Source: Giardia intestinalis
Lineage: Eukaryota
DNA: 64,000 nucleotides
Direction: 5' to 3' (one strand)
Assembly (NCBI GenBank): GCA_000002435.2
Contig: CM018789.1
This document shows positions 6,332 to 57,029 of this stretch, piece by piece. Positions within the stretch are counted from its first letter, which is position 1. Each line of letters opens with the position of its first letter. Position numbers and translations under genes: made by a program. The notes beneath the pieces were generated by a model, which was given only the letters and a program-made list of their open reading frames with translations, made no database searches and was not told the origin of the DNA.

Positions 6332-6536
6332 AGATCAGATCTCTCCTGGAGGTCTGCAGGGATACCTGTTGAGGAAAGGATCAGGGGAATGGACAGAGGA
6401 ATCATCAGAAGTGAGCCTTCTGACAAATGCGCATTGTCATCATTTTATTTATTTCCGGTTCCCGTGGAGATCAACCGCTGTCGGTGTACCCCCTCGTCAT
6501 TCTACTGGTGGATTAGTTTTGTCTGTGTACCCCAAC

Positions 6537-12037: not shown

Positions 12038-13615
12038 TTATACCTCTGCGTTAGCTAGTATATGGCAATTTGTGGACTCGACGTGTACGAAGCACCGCTC
12101 TACAAAGTCAAGTCTTTGAATGTGATCCTGGAGACCGTGCACTATGTCATGGCAGCTACACACATACATCTGGTCAGGAAGACAGATCGTCACCTCTACC
12201 GTAGACTCCTTCCCGCACTGATAGGCGAGCACTTCGTTGATGCGTTCAATGGACGGATCAAAGTGCATGGCATGAAGAACTAGTCGGGCCTGGTCTTCCA
12301 CACCTAAAGAGCGCCCAATCATCGAGCGTATCTGCGTCCGTGCGGCAAGGGTCCAGTTAATCAGTATATAAATGCACAAAATAAGGGAGCCCACGGGATC
12401 AATGTAAGAAAGATTAACAGTCCCGTCATGCCCATTGAACTTGGACCCGACGAAGGCAGCTACAAACCCGAGGGAATTGGAAAGGACATCGTTTCGGTGA
12501 TCGTCACGATAGGCTAAACACGCATCAGATAAGATCTTAGCCTCCCTCCCCACAAAGTGACAAAAGAGACACAAGAATAGCTTTAGTACAATGGTGAAAC
12601 CTATTATAACAATTTGCAAGGTGTCAAAACGAGCTGGGTTGTCGGGAACGCCCTTAGCCAGCTGTATGATCTGCTGAATGGATTCATAAGCAAGAGTTGC
12701 AGCGAATGTCCCCATGATGCATGCAAAGGATAGCACACCAAGGGTCTCATAACGCCTCTTTCCGATGGGATAAGTGATACTTTGCTTCTGGAGCTTCAGT
12801 GAGTCCTGGTGTCCCGTCTTCTCAGCCCCCGAGCGAGCCAAGCGTGCGCATATGAAGAGAACCAGTCCCGAGAGGATATCAAGGCACGAGTCCACCATGG
12901 ATGCCAAGACAGACATAGATAGCGAAAGCGAGTAGGCAATTATCTTGAGAATGACCAACAATATATTACTACCGAAAGAAAGATTGACACAAAGCTTACC
13001 AGCACTGCAAGTGCGTAACAAAGAAAGGTCCTCGGCGGGAGAAGGTACCGCCATGTCATCAAGGTCCTTGCAGAAGCTCAACAGGTATTGTCTAAAGTGG
13101 CAATCGTCTTTGCCACAATCGGTCTTTTGCAAGATTGTGCGTATACGCTCGTACAAGGTGGTCCTCAGAATAGGAATATCATCTGCGAAAGGGTTAGACT
13201 TAGAGCCAGCAGCCTTCTTTTCGAGAATCTCAAGATGTTCTAACCGCGCCTTAACGCTCCGAAGAAAGGCTATGTTATTGTGTTCCTGTAAATGTGGACA
13301 TTGTTCAATTGGTCCGTTGTCTCCTGCCACACAATTGCAAGAGTTATATCCATCCATGACAAGTGACAAGTCCTCTATGCCTAGAGAATTACCAGAGGCT
13401 TTCGCAAGACTCTCTTGGAGTGTTTCAAATTCAGTAAGCCGGAGAGCTTCAGCAAACAAGGAGGGCACACCTGGAAGAGGTGGAACGGTCATCCATTGCA
13501 GAGCCTGCGGCTCTTCTACAATGAGATCTTGCTGCTCGAGATGTGCGCTGCTATGGTGTGTCAATGTGTCATTGTCGAGACCAGTCTCTACACGGAGGTT
13601 CATCACCTTTGCCAT
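12038..13615 (-). CDS. Cation diffusion facilitator (CDF) family metal (Zn/Fe/Mn) efflux transporter
   Basis: ATG at 13613-13615. Transmembrane helices carry the SMVDSCLD/ILSGL and DACLAYRDDHRNDVLSNSLGFVAAF CDF signatures. The C-terminal cytoplasmic cation-efflux domain is also present (TVEVTICLP...HDIVHGLQDHIQRL...HVES). Confidence 0.7.
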   Translation of the reverse strand: MAKVMNLRVETGLDNDTLTHHSSAHLEQQDLIVEEPQALQWMTVPPLPGVPSLFAEALRLTEFETLQESLAKASGNSLGIEDLSLVMDGYNSCNCVAGDNGPIEQCPHLQEHNNIAFLRSVKARLEHLEILEKKAAGSKSNPFADDIPILRTTLYERIRTILQKTDCGKDDCHFRQYLLSFCKDLDDMAVPSPAEDLSLLRTCSAGKLCVNLSFGSNILLVILKIIAYSLSLSMSVLASMVDSCLDILSGLVLFICARLARSGAEKTGHQDSLKLQKQSITYPIGKRRYETLGVLSFACIMGTFAATLAYESIQQIIQLAKGVPDNPARFDTLQIVIIGFTIVLKLFLCLFCHFVGREAKILSDACLAYRDDHRNDVLSNSLGFVAAFVGSKFNGHDGTVNLSYIDPVGSLILCIYILINWTLAARTQIRSMIGRSLGVEDQARLVLHAMHFDPSIERINEVLAYQCGKESTVEVTICLPDQMYVCSCHDIVHGLQDHIQRLDFVERCFVHVESTNCHILANAEV

Positions 13616-13760
13616 TTTATTCTACTCACTTTTCACCCATAACCCTTTTCTGGCTTCTAATTTTCTGGCTGAAAATTACCTAGATAAGAACACATACAAG
13701 GAGCACGCCGAGTATGACATCAGCTGTGTCTACAATCTGTATCTACAGCAACGATATAAA

Positions 13761-14915
13761 ATGCGAAAGACATCTGTTTGGATTCTCGCACTCCTTATTA
13801 GATGCGTGCTAATTTGGCTAGGGACTTACATAAGTGATCCACCGGCGTTATCGATGACAGATATCGACTATCTCGTTGTTTGGGATGGAGTATGCCTGGC
13901 ACCAGTTCCCAGTGAGCGGCCAACATATCGCTACTCTCCAATCTTTAAGGTAATATGTTGGCCTATGTGCAGGTGGCCCACATATGGCAAAGTTCTTTAC
14001 TCACTATCAGACCTTATATTTGCCTTACTCGCGTACAGAATTACACGGCATAGTCAAAGAGTACATCACCTCTGGCTGATGAACCCGTTCGTCATTGCCT
14101 TGTCTGTGCGGGGAAGCTTCGACAGCATTGTCCAAACGCTGGTGGCATGGATGCTATTGACTATTAAGCAGCATAAGTATTTGATGTCAGGCCTTCTGCT
14201 TGGTCTATGTATTCACTTGCGCATATATCCCATAATCTTTACCCCTTTCCTTCTGCTCTATGCCTTATTAGATAGGAAGGCTGATCAAAGGGAGCCGCTG
14301 GATGGAATTTTTCGGGCAGGATTGCTTTTATGTTGCACGCTGATATCATTCTTTGCAACCACCCTGATATCGATGTTGATAGATGATGGATACTTGTCAT
14401 CAGGATTGCTTTATCATGTCTCTGGACGTGTTGATCACAGGCACAACTTGAGCATTTTGTGGGCCGTCCAGCTCGCATGCTCGAAGGGCAAAGAAGTTTA
14501 CTGCTGGCCATTTGCAAAGCTATTTCAAACAGTGATCTTAGCCGCTCTCATTATCCAACGCGTTCTAGCGTTAAGAACGTTAGAACCAATTGAGAATGAA
14601 GAGGCTCAATCTGTGCTCAAGCGAAGATACTTCTATCATCAACTTCTCAGTGATCTAGACCAGGCCTGCCGGGCATTCGTGGCATTTAATTCAGTTGTTA
14701 CAGCCCAGTATTTTTCGTGGACATTTGCCACTTTCACGCTCTCGCCCAACGCTGTTCTCAACAAAACAAGTTATGGCAAACTGGCCACTTTTGTTGGTAG
14801 TCTTGGTCTTTCCTTATGCATTTCCGGAGCACTAGAGTTCTCCGGAAAAACGAAATATTTATCATTGATTACCCTGGCAAACACTGCCGCGATGGGCTCT
14901 CTTCTATTCTTGTAA
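13761..14915 (+). CDS. GPI mannosyltransferase I (PIG-M / GPI14 family)
   Basis: The long ORF from 12945 overlaps the CDF gene antisense, so the first non-overlapping ATG (13761) was used; it is preceded by acgatataaaATG. TDIDYLVVWDGVCLAPVPSERPTYRYSPIFKVICWP matches the PIG-M DXD-like motif (TDIDY.VftDaA.....G.SPY.R.TYRYTPLLA). HLRIYPIIF matches KIYPIIY. The protein is multi-pass membrane. Confidence 0.75.
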   Translation: MRKTSVWILALLIRCVLIWLGTYISDPPALSMTDIDYLVVWDGVCLAPVPSERPTYRYSPIFKVICWPMCRWPTYGKVLYSLSDLIFALLAYRITRHSQRVHHLWLMNPFVIALSVRGSFDSIVQTLVAWMLLTIKQHKYLMSGLLLGLCIHLRIYPIIFTPFLLLYALLDRKADQREPLDGIFRAGLLLCCTLISFFATTLISMLIDDGYLSSGLLYHVSGRVDHRHNLSILWAVQLACSKGKEVYCWPFAKLFQTVILAALIIQRVLALRTLEPIENEEAQSVLKRRYFYHQLLSDLDQACRAFVAFNSVVTAQYFSWTFATFTLSPNAVLNKTSYGKLATFVGSLGLSLCISGALEFSGKTKYLSLITLANTAAMGSLLFL

Positions 14916-14999
14916 CATTTGGAATAGCCGTAGCACAGTCCTGAAGCCAGAATATTGGGGTGAGGCTGTTGCCTGTTATTTGAATGATCTTCCCATGTG

Positions 15000-16620
15000 A
15001 CCCACCGCCGCCCTGGGCAAGTCCCTCGCTCGTTCACCAACCGAGATCCAGATCCAGAGTTCGATCTCAGGTGTCAGGCGACTCCGACGGGAGAAGAACT
15101 TTTGTTCTTCCCTCTTCCCAAGGACGAGGCAGGGCAACCACGATCAGGGGACGATCATGATGCGCTCCACAAGGCAGTCCCGAGCCTCCTGGAGACCCAG
15201 ACACTGGTCTTCTTCGAGACCGAGCAGACTGCGTTCCACCGATTGCACATGGGTGGTGTCCGCATGGCATACATGGAGATGCAGACTGATGGGCACAGCG
15301 GTTTCGCTCGACATAACGAGCACCCTAACAGTAGACGGCCTCTGCCAGGCGAGTGTGCCCCGTCCCGAGGAGTTGCGTCGAGGCCTTCCTCTAATTGCGC
15401 CACGCTGCACCCCTGGACTCGGTCCCTCAGGACCCTGAGCATGCTTCTGTGCTGCGTGGGATAGAACCTGCTCACCAGGAACTGAAGGAGATACCTCGCT
15501 CACTGCCTTGCCGACGACACATCCATCTTCCATAGTAGCAACAGTGACGCGACGGGGATAGCCACAGAGGCGACAGGCCTGGCGAAGCAACATGGCTCGA
15601 CGGTCAACACTGGGTGTAGGAGCACGGAGGGGCAGGAGGCCTTCTTCCTGGCCGGTCTTAAGGAGCTTCCAAGGCAACGAAGAGCTTGAAGCTAGTGATG
15701 GCACCAATCACTCGCCCCGCCTGTCCAGACGGACCCACACGCGGCCCATATGAATCCCTCGACAGGCAAGTCGGGATCCTTGGAGTGTCTGGCTGACAGA
15801 AGTGGACTGATCCTGCCCACACCGGAGAGCGGTGACCTGGGCCACCCGCCAGGCGTCTGCCGCAGCAGCTGGCAGTGCTTGACACCCTCGAGTAGACGGG
15901 TGCCGATTGTAGAGCGAGACAACCAAGCGGTGAACCGGTCCCGATCGCTCGTGATGCTTTGGATGACGCCTCGGTGGACCGAAGCATCACCTCCAAGCGC
16001 ACCATATGATGCGAGGATGGATGGAGCCCACAGGTCAGCTGAGCCAGACGCACTGCACAGGGTGAGCGTCGACATGATCTCGTCCTGGGTGACGGAGCAT
16101 CTGCAAAAGTGCACTGCGATCCATAAGCAGAGGGCCGGGCCTCCTCCTCGACACCACCGCATGGGAGCTGTCCGCCGGCATCCACGAACGCGTACTCTAA
16201 CTCCAAGATAGAGGTGCACGGGGAGCGCACCCTCCCGGTCATACTCGGGACTGATGGTGCAATCCACGAGGAGACAAGGAGGCACCCCGAGGAACGGGGT
16301 AGGCACCCGGGGCCGTGGGGTGGGATCTTTGTCGTAGAGCACCGGCACCACAAAGCGATCCTGGAGTATATGACCAGAGTCAAGCTCCCAAGACCAGATC
16401 GCCGCGACTGACGCAAGGCCCGAGACAACGGGCGCCCACCGGTGCCAGGTGGTGGTTGCCCCAAGCCAGCCAGAGGATGGGAGAGATCCTAGAGGTAACG
16501 TGAGGAGCAGCGGCTTCCGGGGGAGGCGGGCATAGGAGTTCTTCCGCTGGGATCGAGGGCATCTAACTCTCGGAGTTCTGATCTCAGCTACTGCAGGAGT
16601 GAGAGGCTTGCCTAGGGTGG
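15000..16620. other. GC-rich island (about 60% GC against about 46% in the flanks) with no long ORF on either strand
   Basis: There is an abrupt composition shift directly after the PIG-M stop. All six frames are broken by stops every 150-800 bp. The overlapping short ORFs are rich in R/S/G/P and look non-coding. No rRNA-like or RT-like motifs were seen. Confidence 0.4.
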
Positions 16621-16747
16621 TGGTGGCTCACATGGGAGATTACTCTGATAATAGGTGACAACCTCATCTCAGTGAAACGAAGAGTAAACTGGGCTGAGAG
16701 TAAATGGGGGTGTACATTTTTGAAAAGCTGACGAACCAGCCAAATCT

Positions 16748-17032
16748 ATGTCTGGACTTAGCGACCGTGTTTCTAAGATACTCACAGACTCTACACACAT
16801 AGCGGATGCCATGAGCCAGAGCGTGGTTGATGGAGCTGTTACAGGAGTCGCCTGTCGGAGCATAAGCGAAAGTACGCGACCAATAGTTACCCAACAGGTC
16901 GCTCTCAACGAAACTGCTGCGCAGAGGCTTGGAGATCTCCTCCAGCAATCGTTTGAGAGTGAACGGATAGATAGCATCCACAGCTATGACGGCACGACCT
17001 ATTGCGAGATCTCGTGCTGGGGCGCATTCTGA
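16748..17032 (+). CDS. Small hypothetical ORF of 94 aa; its existence as a gene is uncertain
   Basis: ATG at 16748. Both this ORF and the antisense ORF 16664-16981 (which has no ATG start, only GTG) read as protein-like. The plus-strand ORF is followed by a 51-bp A/T-rich spacer and then the helicase gene. Confidence 0.25.
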   Translation: MSGLSDRVSKILTDSTHIADAMSQSVVDGAVTGVACRSISESTRPIVTQQVALNETAAQRLGDLLQQSFESERIDSIHSYDGTTYCEISCWGAF

Positions 17033-17083: not shown

Positions 17084-18871
17084 ATGAAAAGTATAAACCT
17101 TGATGATATCAAGGATTTACTGAAGAAGGCGCCTGCCGAAAGACTAATTTTGTTTTTCAAGCGCCAGTCAGAGTGGGCCGACTCGAGGGCCCCGCCACCA
17201 CTTAAGCGTGACACACCTCAATGCCAGGTAGATCCATCCACAAGTTTAGAACTGGTCAAGGCTGCCCTTCCGCATTACAGAGCTGCCATGCGCGAACTTG
17301 GCATTGATGAAGTCGATATTATGGCATACCTAGCTCGCTATGACGGAGCGTCTTCTATACCTCCGATGGAAGAAGTGCTAGAAGGCTTCTACAACGAAAA
17401 CAGATTGATCCGCTCCGAATACAAGCCACTGGATTTACAAGCAATAACGCCCGTGGATGCTCTTTTTCAATGTTATAACGGCTTGCCCACACCGAACGGA
17501 CTCCAGAGAGCTATTTTATCGCATATAGTAGATAACATCTCTACACGCGTGCGACATGGATACCCTCTCAAGGGGTTGATTGTGCTGGCTACGGGACTGG
17601 GTAAAACGTACCTATCTATATTTCTGCTCGATAGATTCCTTTGCAGTATATACGGTTCATTTCGTCACTTTCTAACCACAGAGCAGGGTGTTGTGCTATT
17701 TGTGGTTAACAGCACCGTTATCAAAGACCAAGCGTTTATGAGATACAAGGCATACTTCTCACGACTTGCGGACCCCGGTACAGACGTGGAGAGCCTGTTC
17801 CTAAAGATAGAGCCAGGTACCGATAGTGTCAGACTGGAGCAGGCTCTGCTCCGTGCAAGGCTTGTTTTTGTCTTGTTCCAATCCTTGCACACCCTGCAAA
17901 AGTATCCACATATATTCAATAGGATTTACTACATAATTGTGGACGAAGTCCATCACATAATAGCGCCTAAGTATTGCAGTAGCATTTCTCTGCTGACCAG
18001 CCACCCGAAGCTTCGACTCCTAGTGGGCCTAACTGCTACTCTGGTGCACAGAGACGATCCTACGGCAGATAGAATAAAGCAGATCTTTGACAACAATCTT
18101 TTTGTAGACTTGCCGTGGACAACTGCCAAGAGTCTACAATTCTTCCCACAGGTCGAATATTATGAGTATGGACACGGATCATATCAGACTCTGGTTGCTG
18201 GCCTGAGGAACAAAACGGCTTCAGTTCAGAACTTCCTCACTGCTATACGTAAGAGTTTAGAGCGTGGTGTCACTACAGCGGGAGAGGCTGTTGTTGATGA
18301 TATAATTCGTTTCATCGCTCATAAAAAGTGCAAACGATCTATTATATTTTTCGGATCAATAACAGACCTAAATAGCTTCTACTCACTTTCTAAGAACGCT
18401 ACAGACAAGCTGTGCAGACAAAGCGAGCAAGGGGATATTGAGTTCTTCCCAATACACTACCAGATCAAAAAGCAGGTGCTTGCAGATAGATTTGCTCGCT
18501 TCTGTTCACCGCCATCTGAAACAGACAGGTTTGTGCTGCTCACAGTTGGCATGGCAACAGAAGGCTTTGACTTCCAGTTCATAGACATGGTTGTTATGCT
18601 CCGGAGAACAGAGTCTGAAAGGATCTTTGTTCAGCAACTCGGGCGTGGTCTGCGGAAGTACCCTGGAAAGGACGTCGTGTACGTGCTGGACTATGTGTAC
18701 GGTCTGCGTAACCGATGGGCTCGCTGTGCCGCTGCCGCCACTGCAGACCTCGATGCCTTGCGGGAGGACATTCTGTCCTTTTGGCCGGTGACAACACTGG
18801 CACCCCCGTATCTTCCCCTTCAAGGGGTGCACACCTCCCAAGACACCGACTCCATTAGCGTACTGGATTGA
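17084..18871 (+). CDS. Superfamily-2 DExH helicase (ResIII-like N-terminal ATPase plus helicase C-terminal domain)
   Basis: ATG at 17084 is preceded by ttacaatccaactaaATG. Motif I is GLIVLATGLGKTY, motif II is IIVDEVHH and motif III is GLTATL. Motif V/VI is VGMATEGFDFQFIDMVVML...QQLGRGLR. Confidence 0.7.
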   Translation: MKSINLDDIKDLLKKAPAERLILFFKRQSEWADSRAPPPLKRDTPQCQVDPSTSLELVKAALPHYRAAMRELGIDEVDIMAYLARYDGASSIPPMEEVLEGFYNENRLIRSEYKPLDLQAITPVDALFQCYNGLPTPNGLQRAILSHIVDNISTRVRHGYPLKGLIVLATGLGKTYLSIFLLDRFLCSIYGSFRHFLTTEQGVVLFVVNSTVIKDQAFMRYKAYFSRLADPGTDVESLFLKIEPGTDSVRLEQALLRARLVFVLFQSLHTLQKYPHIFNRIYYIIVDEVHHIIAPKYCSSISLLTSHPKLRLLVGLTATLVHRDDPTADRIKQIFDNNLFVDLPWTTAKSLQFFPQVEYYEYGHGSYQTLVAGLRNKTASVQNFLTAIRKSLERGVTTAGEAVVDDIIRFIAHKKCKRSIIFFGSITDLNSFYSLSKNATDKLCRQSEQGDIEFFPIHYQIKKQVLADRFARFCSPPSETDRFVLLTVGMATEGFDFQFIDMVVMLRRTESERIFVQQLGRGLRKYPGKDVVYVLDYVYGLRNRWARCAAAATADLDALREDILSFWPVTTLAPPYLPLQGVHTSQDTDSISVLD

Positions 18872-19326
18872 GGAATACCGCATTCTCCTTTGCCTTCTTT
18901 CCGGGCATCCACTGACTTACTTGTACAGTCTATATGAACCACAGGAAGACACGCAGAAACTGTAGGTGCAGCAAGTAGGCGCAAGAAGAAGCAGACTTGG
19001 ACGAGCAACTCACAAACCGCTGGCGTTTACTCACCGGCGTTTCTTAATAACATATCGGGTACCATCAATTATAAAGGATCTTGAGCTAGGAGCCCCTCCA
19101 CGGTATAGTGACCACCCTTTGCACATAATTTCTTTGACCGCTATAGTTTGCTAAAATTTCCTTGGTTCAAATCTCCAACAGAAGCATCCTTTCAAAGTGA
19201 GCTCCATACTGCCTTTACTCCAGACACACGACTGTCTACGATTCAATCTCCCAACTGATCAAGGTCAACGTAAAAAATTAAAGTCACCAGCTGACACGAC
19301 GTTACTTTTAATAATTAATAAATAAA

Positions 19327-36519: not shown

Positions 36520-37554
36520 ATGGCGGCGGCATCCACGGCCAAGATAGTGATCATTGGTAGCTACAATCGGGACCTGGTATGGTATGTCAAAGACTTTCCT
36601 ATTGGAGGTCAGACGATCAATGGGAGCTTTGCGTCTTCCCACGGAGGTAAAGGGTCCAACCAGGCCATAGCCTGCGGAAAGGTTCTTCGTGATCCATCCA
36701 GGGCCTTCTTTGTGGGTGCGGTTGGCAAGGACACTTTTGGGGACGAGATTCTGGCTCATTATAGGGAGCTTGGCATCCCCAACTGCATCAAGCAGGTGTC
36801 CGGGGCACCCACCGGTAATGCAGGGATCTATGTTGCGGAGTCAGGAGAAAACATGATAGTCATCTCTGAGGGTGCTAATGGGATGCTAAAGCCAAGCCTG
36901 GTGCCGGATTTGATGGCTGTGTTGGTGAAAGCCACACTTGTAGTCATGCAGTGCGAAATTTCTCCAGACAATACACTCTTGTTTGTCGAGGTCATCAAGC
37001 AGGCTAAGGCACAGAATAGTAGTCTTCGATTTGTGTTCAACCCAGCACCGTATAGAGCTGACTATGACTTCAGCAAGATCCTTTCCATCACGGACATCTT
37101 CTGTCCTAATGAGCTGGAGGCGCTTGAGATATCTGGTACAGGCAGACTTGAAGGGATTTGCGACGATTCTATGATGAAGGCTCTTGTGGAGAAGATGTCT
37201 AGTCTTTCGCCTTCTCTCAAGTTCGTTCTTTTCACGCTGGGTAGCAGGGGGTCTCGCATAGTGCAGACAAAAAGCTATGAGTCTCGGACTGTTGGGATAT
37301 ACTCCCACGGGAGGGCGATTGACACATCAGGAGCTGGAGACTGCTTTATTGGCAGCTTTTGTGTGCGTCTTATGGAACTGGCCGAGGAGTCTACTCGTGG
37401 ACCATCTGCACTTAATGACATCGACACTATTGCAGAGGCTGCGCGCTTTGCAAGTGTTGCGGCAGGCATCTCTGTAACCCGCAAGGGTACCTCTGCGTCG
37501 GTTCCCAGGCGTCAAGAAGTGGATGATGCCCTGTCTAAATTTTCTGGTAAATAA
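36520..37554 (+). CDS. Ribokinase (PfkB carbohydrate kinase family)
   Basis: The ORF-track ATG is at 36499; the ATG at 36520 (ggtaaaaatattATG, MAAASTAKIVIIGS) is the likely start. The protein aligns end-to-end with bacterial RbsK: GGKGSNQA (GGKGANQA), FNPAPY (NPAPA), CPNELEALEISG (TPNETEAEKLTG), TLGSRGSRIV, DTSGAGDCFIGSF (DT.AAGD.F.GA) and VTRKGTSASVPRRQEVD (VTRKGAQPSVPWREEID). Confidence 0.9.
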   Translation: MAAASTAKIVIIGSYNRDLVWYVKDFPIGGQTINGSFASSHGGKGSNQAIACGKVLRDPSRAFFVGAVGKDTFGDEILAHYRELGIPNCIKQVSGAPTGNAGIYVAESGENMIVISEGANGMLKPSLVPDLMAVLVKATLVVMQCEISPDNTLLFVEVIKQAKAQNSSLRFVFNPAPYRADYDFSKILSITDIFCPNELEALEISGTGRLEGICDDSMMKALVEKMSSLSPSLKFVLFTLGSRGSRIVQTKSYESRTVGIYSHGRAIDTSGAGDCFIGSFCVRLMELAEESTRGPSALNDIDTIAEAARFASVAAGISVTRKGTSASVPRRQEVDDALSKFSGK

Positions 37555-37572
37555 AAGATTGATTTAAGCAAA

Positions 37573-38364
37573 ATGACTGTGTGTGTTGCTCAGGCGGAGC
37601 GTGGTGCGTCAGAGCTGGAGTCTAAGGCAATGGTGAAGAAAAGCAACGATGCTGCGTTACTAGTTGCCCACCGTATCGCGGAAGTTGTCCGCAGCAAGCC
37701 GAATTGCGTTCTGGGCCTGGCGACCGGATCGACCCCCATCCCCGTCTACCAGGAGCTCGCCCGTCTCCACCGCGAGGAGGGCCTGGACTTCTCGCAGGTC
37801 AGGACGTTCAACCTGGACGAGTATGCAGGGCTTCCTCCCACGCACGACCAGAGCTACCGCTTCTTCATGGAGGAGCACCTCTTCAGCAAGGTCAATATAA
37901 AGCCGGAGAATGTACACTTCTTGAGCGGACTGGCAATACGGGCTGAGGATGAATGCATAAGATATGAAAATGCGCTCCAAACAATTGGCCCCTGCGACGT
38001 CTGGCTTCTGGGGATCGGGCACAACGGTCACATCGCCTTCAACGAGCCGGGGTCCCCGAGAGACAGCAGGACGCGCGTCGTCTGCCTGACCCAGAGCACG
38101 ATCGACGCCAACGCGCGCTTCTTCGGAAACGACAAGTCGAAGGTCCCGACCAAGGCCCTCTCTGTGGGGATAGCAACCATCATGGAGAGCCGCGAGATCC
38201 TTCTTCTCGCCACCGGTGAGAGCAAGTGTGAGGCTGTGACAAAGGCCATAGTTGGGGAGCCAACAAATGCTGTTCCTGCCTCGCTGCTTCAAAGACATCC
38301 TCGCTGTTGCTTTTATGTCGATGAGGCCGCAGGTGCGGAAGTCGCCGAGACCGTTACAGAATAA
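37573..38364 (+). CDS. Glucosamine-6-phosphate deaminase/isomerase (NagB family)
   Basis: ATG at 37573 lies 18 nt after the ribokinase stop. Matches to NagB include VLGLATGSTP, RTFNLDEYAGLP (TFNMDEYVGLP), LLGIGHNGHIAFNEPGS (GGVGNDGHIAFNEP.S) and ANARFFGND.SKVPTKALSVGI ([22 protein letters not shown]). The gene body is markedly more GC-rich than its surroundings. AGTAAA occurs about 10 nt after the TAA. Confidence 0.9.
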   Translation: MTVCVAQAERGASELESKAMVKKSNDAALLVAHRIAEVVRSKPNCVLGLATGSTPIPVYQELARLHREEGLDFSQVRTFNLDEYAGLPPTHDQSYRFFMEEHLFSKVNIKPENVHFLSGLAIRAEDECIRYENALQTIGPCDVWLLGIGHNGHIAFNEPGSPRDSRTRVVCLTQSTIDANARFFGNDKSKVPTKALSVGIATIMESREILLLATGESKCEAVTKAIVGEPTNAVPASLLQRHPRCCFYVDEAAGAEVAETVTE

Positions 38365-38396
38365 ATTGTAAAGTAAAAAACACCTGGGGCTGAACC

Positions 38397-39950
38397 ATGC
38401 GGTGCTCCTGCGACGTCCGGGTTGTCTTTGCCGTAATTGGTTTCCTTCTCTTCGGCGGGATCACCACAATCGCGCAGAATGACTACCTCACTTACACAAC
38501 GACAAATTTCCCGGGAAAGGAGGGAGTAGTCACTGAGTTCGCTTATCCCTGGTTCGGGAACTTTCTGATGTTTTTTGCAATGAGCCTGGTAGGCATTGGG
38601 TGGGCATACCAAGCGGCAAAGGCGCGGAAGGACAAGCGCCTGTATGGAGGCGTTCCCGATCACAATAACGAGTACTCTACGGAGAATGCACGTGATTTAG
38701 ATTCTTCTACTGATGATGCATCAGATGTTCTAGAGAGCTTCCGCCCGTCAAAGCCCGTGCAGCGCCTTTCCTGTCGTCAGCGCTTTATGCAAAACGCTTG
38801 GGGAGTCCTCATAATTAGTTCAGTGTTTGATCTCCTAGCAAGCGGGCTAGGTTCTGTTGGGCTTAGCTCTATCTGTAACGTACCACCCTCCGTCTATCAA
38901 ATGCTCCAGGGCGCCATCATTATATTCACTGCCCTCCTTTCGCGCTGCTTCCTCAAACGCAAAACGACTGCTCAACAAAATCTTGCCATCTTCATATGTA
39001 TTTTGGGGCTAGTGATTATAGCAGTGGCTTCATACCTAGCAGACCTTTACTTCCCAGACATCCAACCGCCAGCTCCGCAGGATCCGCAGGTCCAGAATTA
39101 TATGCATCTTTATGATATACGCGCCATAGAGTACAAGCGAACACTTGCTAGTGCTGCTCTGCGCTTTGTTATGAAGCCACACGAGCGTAGGCAGCACGGG
39201 ATCCACACATATTTAGCTACGGCAGAATACAGGGATGGACAGGTACTCACCACCAGTCTGCCCAAGTTCCTGGACTGCGTTCTAGCTGCTGCTCCTCTCA
39301 CTACCGAGACTGAGAGTGACAAGACTAACAGCACCATGCTGGTCGTTGGAATAGTACTAATCTTAATCAGCCAACTTATCTACGCCGGCCAATTTGTCGT
39401 TGAAGAATATACCATGTCAAGAATAGATGCCTTTCCATCCCAAGTCGTGTGCATAGAAGGCATATACGGATTTATTATCAGTATTGGGCTTGTATTTCCC
39501 GTTCTTATGGCACTCAAGATTGAAAATGACTTCGATGCCTTTCTATTCATTAAATCAGAGCCTAACATTTTAGTTCCCATGAGCATATTCTTTATTACAG
39601 TGGCGTTGTACAACGGATTTGGGCAGACGATAACCAAATTGATATCAGCGAATCATCGGACAATCCTCGAGGGTTTGCGTGGACTGGTGGTATGGATTTT
39701 TGCCCTTATTGAGCGCGGCATATTTGGGGCCCCATGGGGAGAGGGCATCTACGGCTGGACAAGTGCGATAGAGGCAGTTGGCTTTGTTGTTCTCCTCGTC
39801 GGATCAATGGTTTATTATTCTATTATAAAGTGCAATTGCTTTAAGGGTTCACGGACGGAAACAACCAACAAGTTTGCTGCCATAATGGAGGAGACGTCAG
39901 CTGCGCCCTATGAGGTGTTCTGCTCTGAAACCGTTTCTTCGTCTGCATGA
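38397..39950 (+). CDS. Multi-pass membrane transporter, drug/metabolite transporter (DMT) superfamily, possibly SLC35F-like
   Basis: ATG at 38397 lies 32 nt after the deaminase stop. About 10 predicted hydrophobic helices are arranged as two halves separated by a roughly 110-aa hydrophilic loop. AYPWFGNFLMFFAMSLVGIGW resembles the conserved first-helix motif of SLC35F6-type transporters. The family assignment is tentative. Confidence 0.45.
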   Translation: MRCSCDVRVVFAVIGFLLFGGITTIAQNDYLTYTTTNFPGKEGVVTEFAYPWFGNFLMFFAMSLVGIGWAYQAAKARKDKRLYGGVPDHNNEYSTENARDLDSSTDDASDVLESFRPSKPVQRLSCRQRFMQNAWGVLIISSVFDLLASGLGSVGLSSICNVPPSVYQMLQGAIIIFTALLSRCFLKRKTTAQQNLAIFICILGLVIIAVASYLADLYFPDIQPPAPQDPQVQNYMHLYDIRAIEYKRTLASAALRFVMKPHERRQHGIHTYLATAEYRDGQVLTTSLPKFLDCVLAAAPLTTETESDKTNSTMLVVGIVLILISQLIYAGQFVVEEYTMSRIDAFPSQVVCIEGIYGFIISIGLVFPVLMALKIENDFDAFLFIKSEPNILVPMSIFFITVALYNGFGQTITKLISANHRTILEGLRGLVVWIFALIERGIFGAPWGEGIYGWTSAIEAVGFVVLLVGSMVYYSIIKCNCFKGSRTETTNKFAAIMEETSAAPYEVFCSETVSSSA

Positions 39951-56065: not shown

Positions 56066-57029
56066 AGTGTCGCCAGGTTTTTGTTTCTGAATTCAACCCG
56101 ACTCTAGAAGAGTCCGGGTTCCAATCCTGGCAAAGTAACGTAAGGGTAGTAAGCATTTACATCAGACAACCAGCTGGAGTACTTTGACTCCCAAGATTTC
56201 TTGAATTTTCTCTCGTCCGTCATGGCATTGTTAATTTTACCAAATCCTCTAGGCTTCAGTCCCAAACAAACACATCTCCATGTCTTGCTTCCATGTGCTG
56301 ACCGCTTTCTCAAGAAGAAACCCCTGCAGCAGATCAGCTGGCTAGGAGTTCGGGATACATATTCCTAAAATCCCGCTAGCGCAGCCAAGGTCGAGCGAGT
56401 GGTTTTCAAGGCCTAAAGTGTCTCGTAGGGAAGGATGAAGATGCGGATGACTCACAGCTATATTCGTACTCGGTAATGCATACATGAAAGCCCCAAAGTG
56501 ATTTCCAACAACCATAACCACAACACAACCTGGCCATTTCCCCCACGTCGCTGAGCACTCATCTAACCACAGAAAGAACCAAATCTTCGTCAAGGCAACA
56601 AGTACTAACATTGAGTAAAGGAGTCAGATCTCATAAGTAAGCTCATAGTCGTGCTTGCTCGGAGACAGATAATCATTCTGCGAGGAACCAAGGAGTAGTC
56701 TGAATCGGGTTAGGCGTCCTACCGTCAGCCTGGGCGCATCGAACTGAATAACCCGCGTCGCAGCCTCTTTCAGCGAGCACTCTCAGTCGGGCAAGGCCCT
56801 CCTCCTGGCATAAGCACAGAGGCTCTTGGTTTCTGGTGCGACTGCTGCACGCGTTGGCGCGCCTCCCTCACGGAAAATGACCTCAGACCTTCCCCCGACC
56901 GCGGTCGGTGGCGCCCCTCCTAATTCCTGTCTTTCCAGGCTATCTTTTCGGTGATGTGAATTTAAACTGGTTGCATTTGGACAATTTAAGTACAATGGCT
57001 AAGAAGGCGGTTTGCAGGCATTCCTCCCA
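56066..57029. other. Unusually long (964 bp) non-coding spacer between the cyclin and LRR genes; only short, non-protein-like ORFs on either strand
   Basis: Seen directly in the sequence: there is no ORF above 90 aa, the composition is about 50% GC, and a tRNA T-arm-like motif (CCGGG-TTCCAAT-CCTGG at 56114-56130) occurs without a matching acceptor stem. Confidence 0.4.

Follow-up and report, generated by a model that had tools for sequence, protein, structure and literature searches.

The DNA analysed here (the window) is a 64,000-nucleotide stretch of contig CM018789.1 (GenBank assembly GCA_000002435.2) from Giardia intestinalis WB clone C6, on a chromosome of 1.485 Mb, and our subject is a block rich in guanine plus cytosine (GC) that is flanked by the PIG-M stop codon (14915) and the start of GL50803_5911 (16748), which encodes 94 amino acids (aa). 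This island is one copy, dead and non-coding, of a dispersed repeat specific to Giardia, probably the GilD/Genie 2 family of dead retroelements without long terminal repeats (non-LTR). The copy is set in a gene-dense housekeeping region, with PIG-M on one side and a helicase operon-like cluster on the other, and the flanking proteins are identical to WB C6 entries (CDF transporter XP_001709111, PIG-M XP_001709110.2, GL50803_005911 and the helicase-related XP_001709106). Spacers around the neighbouring genes are short, as a sequence-only reading of this DNA had already remarked. The same reading had pointed to a GC-rich island at 15000-16620, and this was borne out: the island has 58-63% GC against 42-50% around it, with values of 0.55-0.63 in all 300-bp windows from about 14900 to 16700 and of 0.42-0.51 on either side, and among the 1-kb bins of the 64-kb window only 15001-16000 (0.607) and 16001-17000 (0.570) exceed 0.55. 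The second-highest GC stretch of the window, at 37001-39000, reaches 0.52-0.53 per kb.

Among the explanations that the sequence-only reading had offered for the island, a relic of a GC-rich repeat family is the one that held up. Used as a phmmer query against 1.84 billion representative proteins in an exhaustive search, the 187-aa open reading frame (ORF) on the minus strand at 15144-15707 returned 22 matches at 44-79% identity, all of them short ORFs, and every named source was Giardia except for one low-complexity match (P0101). The 268-aa minus-strand ORF at 15658-16464 added 10 further matches and a profile built from the family ORFs returned 22, giving at least 30 relatives in all, which are short unnamed Giardia ORFs at other loci. 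Members include GL50803_120021 (two copies) and GL50803_99065 in WB; DHA2_150057, 150144, 150205, 150644, 151561, 151665/6, 154233, 154431 and 154493 in the assemblage A2 genome DH; and GLP15_3287, at 38-45% identity, in P15 (assemblage E). No assemblage B names were found among them, though B proteomes were present in the searched database. Counted at the protein level, the copies in DH number no fewer than 10 named loci, spread over 8 contigs or more, and those in WB about 8-10 ORF loci, and the family ORFs represent the same DNA read in different, shifting frames.

Four further copies were recovered as DNA, at 79-91% identity. One of these, L026, corresponds to WB 15401-16475 (79% identity), with a right terminus that is uncertain; L027 corresponds to WB 15673-16438, its outer right terminus also being present; L028-30 covers WB 15599-15815 plus 16453-16695, right terminus included; and L031 is a form of about 0.9 kb covering WB 14957-15834 plus 16614-16658, with both termini and with an internal 779 bp missing. 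Left ends are found at 14957 (WB, DH and L031), 15401 (L026), 15599 (L028) and 15673 (L027), which leaves three of the four paralogs truncated at the left side, and the right terminus is kept in five of six copies, L026 being the uncertain case. Genes for variant-specific surface proteins (VSPs) lie about 0.2-2.7 kb from all four sampled paralogs, and the right end of three among them points to the 3' end of a VSP gene at a distance of 200-360 bp. No VSP gene flanks the PIG-M copy, which distinguishes it from the spacers of identical inverted VSP pairs (PMC2996952), otherwise similar as 2-4 kb of non-coding DNA between inverted identical sequence by VSP 3' ends; for this reason, and because VSP-to-element intervals are not conserved among the paralogs, the island was rejected as a candidate spacer of such a pair.

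The surroundings of two paralogs deserve separate mention. At L031 10973-11356 (DH contig AHGT01000010), a truncated OLA1/YchF-like ORF ('KPVIYLLNMSEADY...') adjoins the short copy in frame at its left terminus; this contig ends 380 bp after the junction, and two VSP genes are located just upstream. At L027 7532-9700 (DH contig AHGT01000008), split Pkinase and ankyrin-repeat ORF fragments that look like a decayed NEK or protein 21.1-type gene adjoin the family copy, and the right end of the element runs into the ankyrin ORF.

The terminal inverted repeats, together with the homology to independent copies, make the actual unit slightly wider than the GC step. It extends from 14957, where the L031 homology begins, to about 16700 (~1.74 kb, ~60% GC; given here on the plus strand, the putative sense strand), with homology at the right end to L028, DH and L031 continuing to ~16695-16712. 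The left arm of the inverted repeat (14956-15065) has 113 aligned nucleotides (nt) that are 74% identical to the reverse complement of the right arm (16561-16671; blastn E 3e-15), a score not attained in 400 trials with shuffled ends or with window pairs placed at random, and the two WB arms joined by a tetraloop fold with a z-score of -9.3. The arms in DH measure 159 nt (71% identity over 164 aligned columns, E 2e-18), and L031 carries a truncated inverted-repeat pair. Compensatory co-variation between the arms is not claimed, the two double changes that separate WB from L031 being about the chance level. The whole island was also considered as a degenerate palindrome, which was rejected since only the terminal 110-160 bp are significantly inverted. 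Both the terminal inverted repeats and the annotated ORFs discussed below had been overlooked in the first reading of the sequence.

At the right boundary of the element, just upstream of the GL50803_5911 promoter region, there is a plus-strand tail (16681-16712) made of a tandem 16-mer duplication, a direct repeat with the copies AGAGTAAACTGGGCTG and AGAGTAAATGGGGGTG. The known poly(A) signal of Giardia is AGTRAAY, and each 16-mer includes a motif resembling it (AGTAAAC / AGTAAAT), 10-25 nt from the right end. These two are the only plus-strand AGTRAAY motifs in 14300-16900, and AGTAA(A/G) is also found at the right ends of L028 and L031. The plus strand of the element is A-rich. Internal deletions are a further feature of the family: the DH ortholog has lost a 48-bp segment (15550-15597) with 6-nt microhomology (CGACGG) at its flanks and also lacks ~15836-16130, while the 779 bp at 15835-16613 are missing from the short (~0.9 kb) form, represented by L031 and by the ORFs P0109, P0134 and P0113. 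The junctions of the larger deletions are too diverged for microhomology scoring. A recurrent junction was noted at ~15832-15836, where the DH deletion begins (15836), the short form joins 15834 to 16614 and an RNA contig described below (L015) starts (15832), with the L028 homology ending at 15815.

We compared the syntenic locus in A2 (DH, L005), an ENA metagenome scaffold (L004), assemblage E (P15, L014) and assemblage B (BAH15c1, L021; GS, L023; and a Logan contig, L022). The island is present at the same site in the metagenome scaffold and in DH, where it has 59% GC and is shorter by the 48 bp mentioned above and by about 290 bp from 15836. The spacer in P15 is 457 bp long with 36% GC and those of assemblage B are 709-767 bp with 39% GC; neither has any similarity to the island, and WB homology stops at 14931/14923 and resumes at 16710/16717 (E/B). 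Because the island is absent from the B and E sites, and assemblage B is the outgroup to A plus E, we infer that it was gained in the assemblage A lineage after the split from E and B, presumably by insertion between PIG-M and GL50803_5911.

Since its arrival the island has diverged rapidly. Between WB and DH, it differs by 8-24% per 300 bp, as compared to 0-4% (mostly 2% or less) in the flanks. A mildly raised A1/A2 divergence (2-4% per 300 bp) was seen at ~13200-15000 and 17400-19200, about 3 kb on each side, versus 0-1% further out, a rise that may reflect linkage to an old haplotype or one that recombines. Over the short term the sequence is stable, with the DH copy and the unrelated metagenome scaffold differing at one position, and the WB island is identical across all accessions with island ORFs (XP_ and KAE entries) and the RNA contig. 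Within 14957-15598, WB and DH are each other's nearest relatives among the sampled copies (89%). Within 15599-15835, DH is 90% identical to L031 and L028 and 84% to WB, with WB itself 87% identical to L026, and within 16131-16475 the orthologs, at 74-81%, are no closer than paralogs. When polarised with L031, the WB/DH differences fall in lineage-specific tracts (35 runs versus 49.7 ± 4.9 expected, P = 0.002). With mosaic A1 and A2 orthologs whose central part resembles paralogs more than each other, these sequence comparisons indicate that interlocus gene conversion among family members has apparently acted after the A1/A2 split, along with drift and deletions. Neutral drift, microhomology-mediated deletions and tract exchange with paralogs since insertion would explain at least part of a divergence that is 10-20x that of the flanks.

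The foreign-looking GC content is the sole point in favour of two other explanations raised by the sequence-only reading, a decayed horizontally acquired bacterial gene and an assembly chimera, and these are effectively refuted. Both junctions of the island are spanned by independent short-read contigs from many samples, the DH assembly, the ENA metagenome scaffold and the RNA contig; with this recurrence in RNA and across independent assemblies, misassembly is excluded as the origin of the block. With regard to a horizontal origin, no homolog outside Giardia was found in protein searches or in distant blastn searches of plasmid and phage sequences, neither Pfam nor PDB gave a match, and the sequence is multicopy within Giardia. 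The interior of the island does interrupt short-read assembly: Logan DNA contigs from many SRA runs of independent Giardia samples end at 15039-15042 and restart at 16488-16532, and the interior ORF P0036 is encoded by no Logan contig. These breaks are attributed to 31-mers that are putatively common to paralogs.

The island had also been described as 'ORF-less', and it is true that no frame is open across the block; however, mechanically called ORFs of up to 268 aa do occur, two of which are annotated as hypothetical genes. The 268-aa ORF holds GL50803_0027657 (194 aa) and the 187-aa ORF holds GL50803_0027658 (149 aa), and a third long minus-strand ORF has 219 aa. An old plus-strand gene model, GL50803_39017 (93 aa, 15157-15438), appears in older source labels only and is not among the KAE83018xx proteins. 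All three gene models form singleton or near-singleton protein clusters. We judged the 268-aa ORF to be spurious, given that its relatives are only family ORFs in shifting frames, and the 187-aa ORF likewise, given that DH reads the same DNA in other frames as a result of 1-2 bp indels. Interruptions occur in all frames of WB, DH and the four paralogs. The 215 WB/DH substitutions (170 transitions and 45 transversions) are spread flatly over the codon phases (74/69/72), as are the variable sites of the paralogs, and a dozen 1-2 bp indels separate the WB and DH copies. A consensus of six copies (1827 bp, 61% GC) does not recover a long ORF, its longest having 296 aa, versus 311 open codons in WB alone.

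It is highly unlikely that GL50803_0027657 and GL50803_0027658 are instead real, fast-evolving orphan genes with the GC-rich block as their locus. What could be taken as coding signal consists of the ORFs of 149-268 aa themselves, a minus strand that is significantly depleted of stop codons in all frames (29 seen versus 47 ± 6 expected) and has a polyadenylated transcript, and a weak period-3 composition signal at 15000-15450; the stop depletion could be the trace of an old ORF with scrambled frames or reflect a trinucleotide bias within the family. Against this, the frames are not kept between A1 and A2, where the small indels are joined by the 48-bp and ~290-bp deletions, the substitutions lack codon periodicity, the relatives are the same DNA in different frames, and the locus is missing from assemblages B and E. 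No domains were detected either, with nothing relevant in Pfam for the long ORFs of both strands, the DH ORF, the consensus ORFs, the family ORFs or the ORFs flanking paralogs, and no match to the consensus ORFs in a PDB sequence search. Both annotated genes are thus probably chance ORFs.

Transcription, which the sequence-only reading had listed as something to check, was found on the minus strand over part of the island. The Logan contig L015 (SRR9222556) is 1345 nt long, matches 15832 down to 14488 at 100% identity and then continues with 25 non-genomic A residues, defining a polyadenylated minus-strand transcript (14488-15832) that exits the left end of the element and continues in antisense across the final 427 nt of PIG-M. 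An AGTAAAC motif at 14496-14502 is placed 12-13 nt upstream of the poly(A), and no minus-strand AGTRAAY occurs between 16900 and 14502. Read-through to 14502 within PIG-M may be explained by the GC-rich element having no such signal on its minus strand. Teodorovic et al. 2007 reportedly found Giardia promoters to be bidirectional. This would be a passive RNA, with a start near the AT-rich bidirectional GL50803_5911 promoter and an end inside PIG-M.

The same transcript, by overlapping the 3' end of PIG-M, together with arms that could pair as an imperfect stem of ~110 bp, could speak for a functional structured or antisense non-coding RNA locus, such as one that regulates PIG-M or yields small RNAs from the inverted-repeat stem. 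We regard this as very improbable. The recovered transcript includes one arm only, and Rfam has no match in the island at the gathering threshold, with a mere chance match (E 0.48) in E-value mode. Local folding z-scores of the island are ordinary, resembling and no better than those of the flanking genes, and the sequence, at 10-24% divergence with indels, lacks conservation between A1 and A2, besides being absent in B and E despite the same PIG-M gene. The structured RNA that the sequence-only reading had listed among its options thus finds no backing here.

Under either family reading weighed below, the island is a decayed mobile-element copy rather than a gene or RNA gene, and neither horizontal transfer nor an artefact accounts for it. 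Its simplest anatomy is that of a non-coding RNA retroposed with 5' truncation, because of the constant right end with poly(A) signals, the variable left ends, the internal deletions, the roughly ten degenerate copies and the A-rich plus strand. The plus strand would be sense, the right end would correspond to the 3' end of the retroposed transcript, copies without the left part would be 5'-truncated, and the copy beside PIG-M would retain only non-coding sequence resembling an untranslated region (UTR).

GilD (Arkhipova and Morrison 2001) and Genie 2 (Burke, Malik, Rich and Eickbush 2002) are one and the same family. The island shares with it a Giardia-specific and dispersed, non-telomeric distribution, the presence of stops, frameshifts and internal deletions, and paralogs beside VSP genes; it differs in that this copy lies in a housekeeping region and is not VSP-adjacent, and in that the copies examined have no remnant of a reverse transcriptase (RT) or endonuclease. 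The 2002 abstract on Genie 2 is said to report about ten degenerate copies, all with inverted repeats of up to 172 bp, in line with the copy number seen here and with arms of 113 (WB) and 164 (DH) aligned nt. GilD has been described as dead, as adjoining VSP genes in gene-poor regions and as disrupted by microhomology-mediated deletions (PMC2861651). Since it is the only Giardia family described with these habits, the island is probably GilD/Genie 2, an assignment made by habits and description. Literature searches gave no match for the gene IDs GL50803_0027657 and GL50803_0027658 or for Genie 2 as text. The same paper likens the pattern of GilD to that of Hebe of Adineta vaga, which is also inactivated by microhomology-mediated internal deletions but is subtelomeric, RT-encoding and metazoan (PMC2861651). 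The other Giardia retroelements, GilM and GilT (Genie 1 / 1A), share the host, and for them long 3' UTRs (PMC5537684) as well as transcription on both strands are reported; they are, however, intact, RT-encoding elements of ~6 kb in head-to-tail telomeric arrays, whereas the present one lies internally, spans 1.7 kb without coding sequence and has inverted repeats at its borders.

Several observations weigh against the GilD/Genie 2 assignment and the retroposition that it implies. No RT or endonuclease remnant was found in this copy, the six-copy consensus, the family ORFs or the paralog flanks (Pfam to E 5, PDB to E 10, and motifs), a search that covered partial and degenerate family copies; a six-frame scan of the consensus likewise gave no credible RT, CCHC or PD-(D/E)xK motifs. 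The right end has no 3' A-run, and no target-site duplication is definable, there being no alignable empty site: the B and E spacers could not be aligned to the residual A spacer, nor centrally to each other. WB and L031 share their left terminus at 14957, at the outer edge of the repeat, which is more class II-like than random 5' truncation. The stop depletion is on the minus strand and not on the putative sense strand. Finally, gene conversion was demonstrated for the middle of the element only, and the 11% divergence within 14957-15598 is not explained by it.

Some of these points would fit better with a non-autonomous class II element, resembling a miniature inverted-repeat transposable element (MITE) with terminal inverted repeats (TIRs), of a family undescribed in Giardia and mobilised in trans now or once, with the ~0.9-kb form as an amplified derivative. 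The long inverted repeats are present in WB, DH and the independent L031, the left terminus is shared as just described, no RT remnant was found in the material examined, and the same deletion form (15834 joined to 16614) recurs at several loci (L031/P0121, P0109 and P0134), as would be expected for an amplified derivative. MITE-like transposons similarly combine terminal inverted repeats with no coding capacity and multicopy, internally deleted derivatives. Here, however, the two repeats, at 110-160 bp, are long and agree at only ~72-74% of positions; a target-site duplication and a known autonomous partner are lacking, and the family ORFs contain no transposase domain. The termini are also asymmetric, in that the right end, with its poly(A) signals, runs on for ~30 nt past the inverted repeat, and the one-sided truncations, with three of four paralogs lacking the left part and five of six copies keeping the right end, follow the pattern of retroposition. 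Published accounts list only three Giardia retroelement families, of which the dead one has the same genomic habits. Overall, we consider a class II origin possible but rather doubtful. A more far-reaching version of it, equally unlikely in our estimation, would make the island an undescribed non-autonomous long-inverted-repeat element and the first class II-like mobile DNA in Giardia, with copies still homogenising by gene conversion and able to land in housekeeping spacers; if true, this would be the first class II-like family in a genome reported to have only three retroelement families.

Aside from the island, a few other features of the window were noted. Rfam matches at the gathering level elsewhere are the GlsR14 C/D small nucleolar RNA (6378-6445, minus strand, 100 bits) and the nuclear RNase P RNA (56684-56927, minus strand, 78 bits). 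Upstream of the island, a mechanically called 656-aa ORF with a TTG start (12945-14915, plus strand) passes through the CDF transporter gene in antisense and continues into PIG-M. For PIG-M, the current model has 384 aa from a start at 13761 and the model of 2007 had 654 aa; the long version is probably an over-extension.

Taken as a probable dead GilD/Genie 2 copy, the island is a real but ordinary finding, being fast-diverging junk DNA, and its lineage-specific insertion in a housekeeping spacer is of modest note. For annotation, GL50803_0027657 and GL50803_0027658 ought to be flagged, along with some twenty ORFs like them that are annotated in WB, DH and P15; all of them have probably arisen by chance within a dead repeat. 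The element consistently breaks short-read assemblies. The copy offers a presence/absence marker for assemblage A versus B and E and a length marker for A1 versus A2, and its ortholog divergence, along with tract exchange, calls for caution in typing or dating Giardia lineages from such regions. The read-through antisense RNA into PIG-M illustrates how GC-rich insertions without poly(A) signals extend sterile transcripts in Giardia, and, for a parasite of debated sexuality, the mosaic orthologs exemplify interlocus gene conversion on a small scale.

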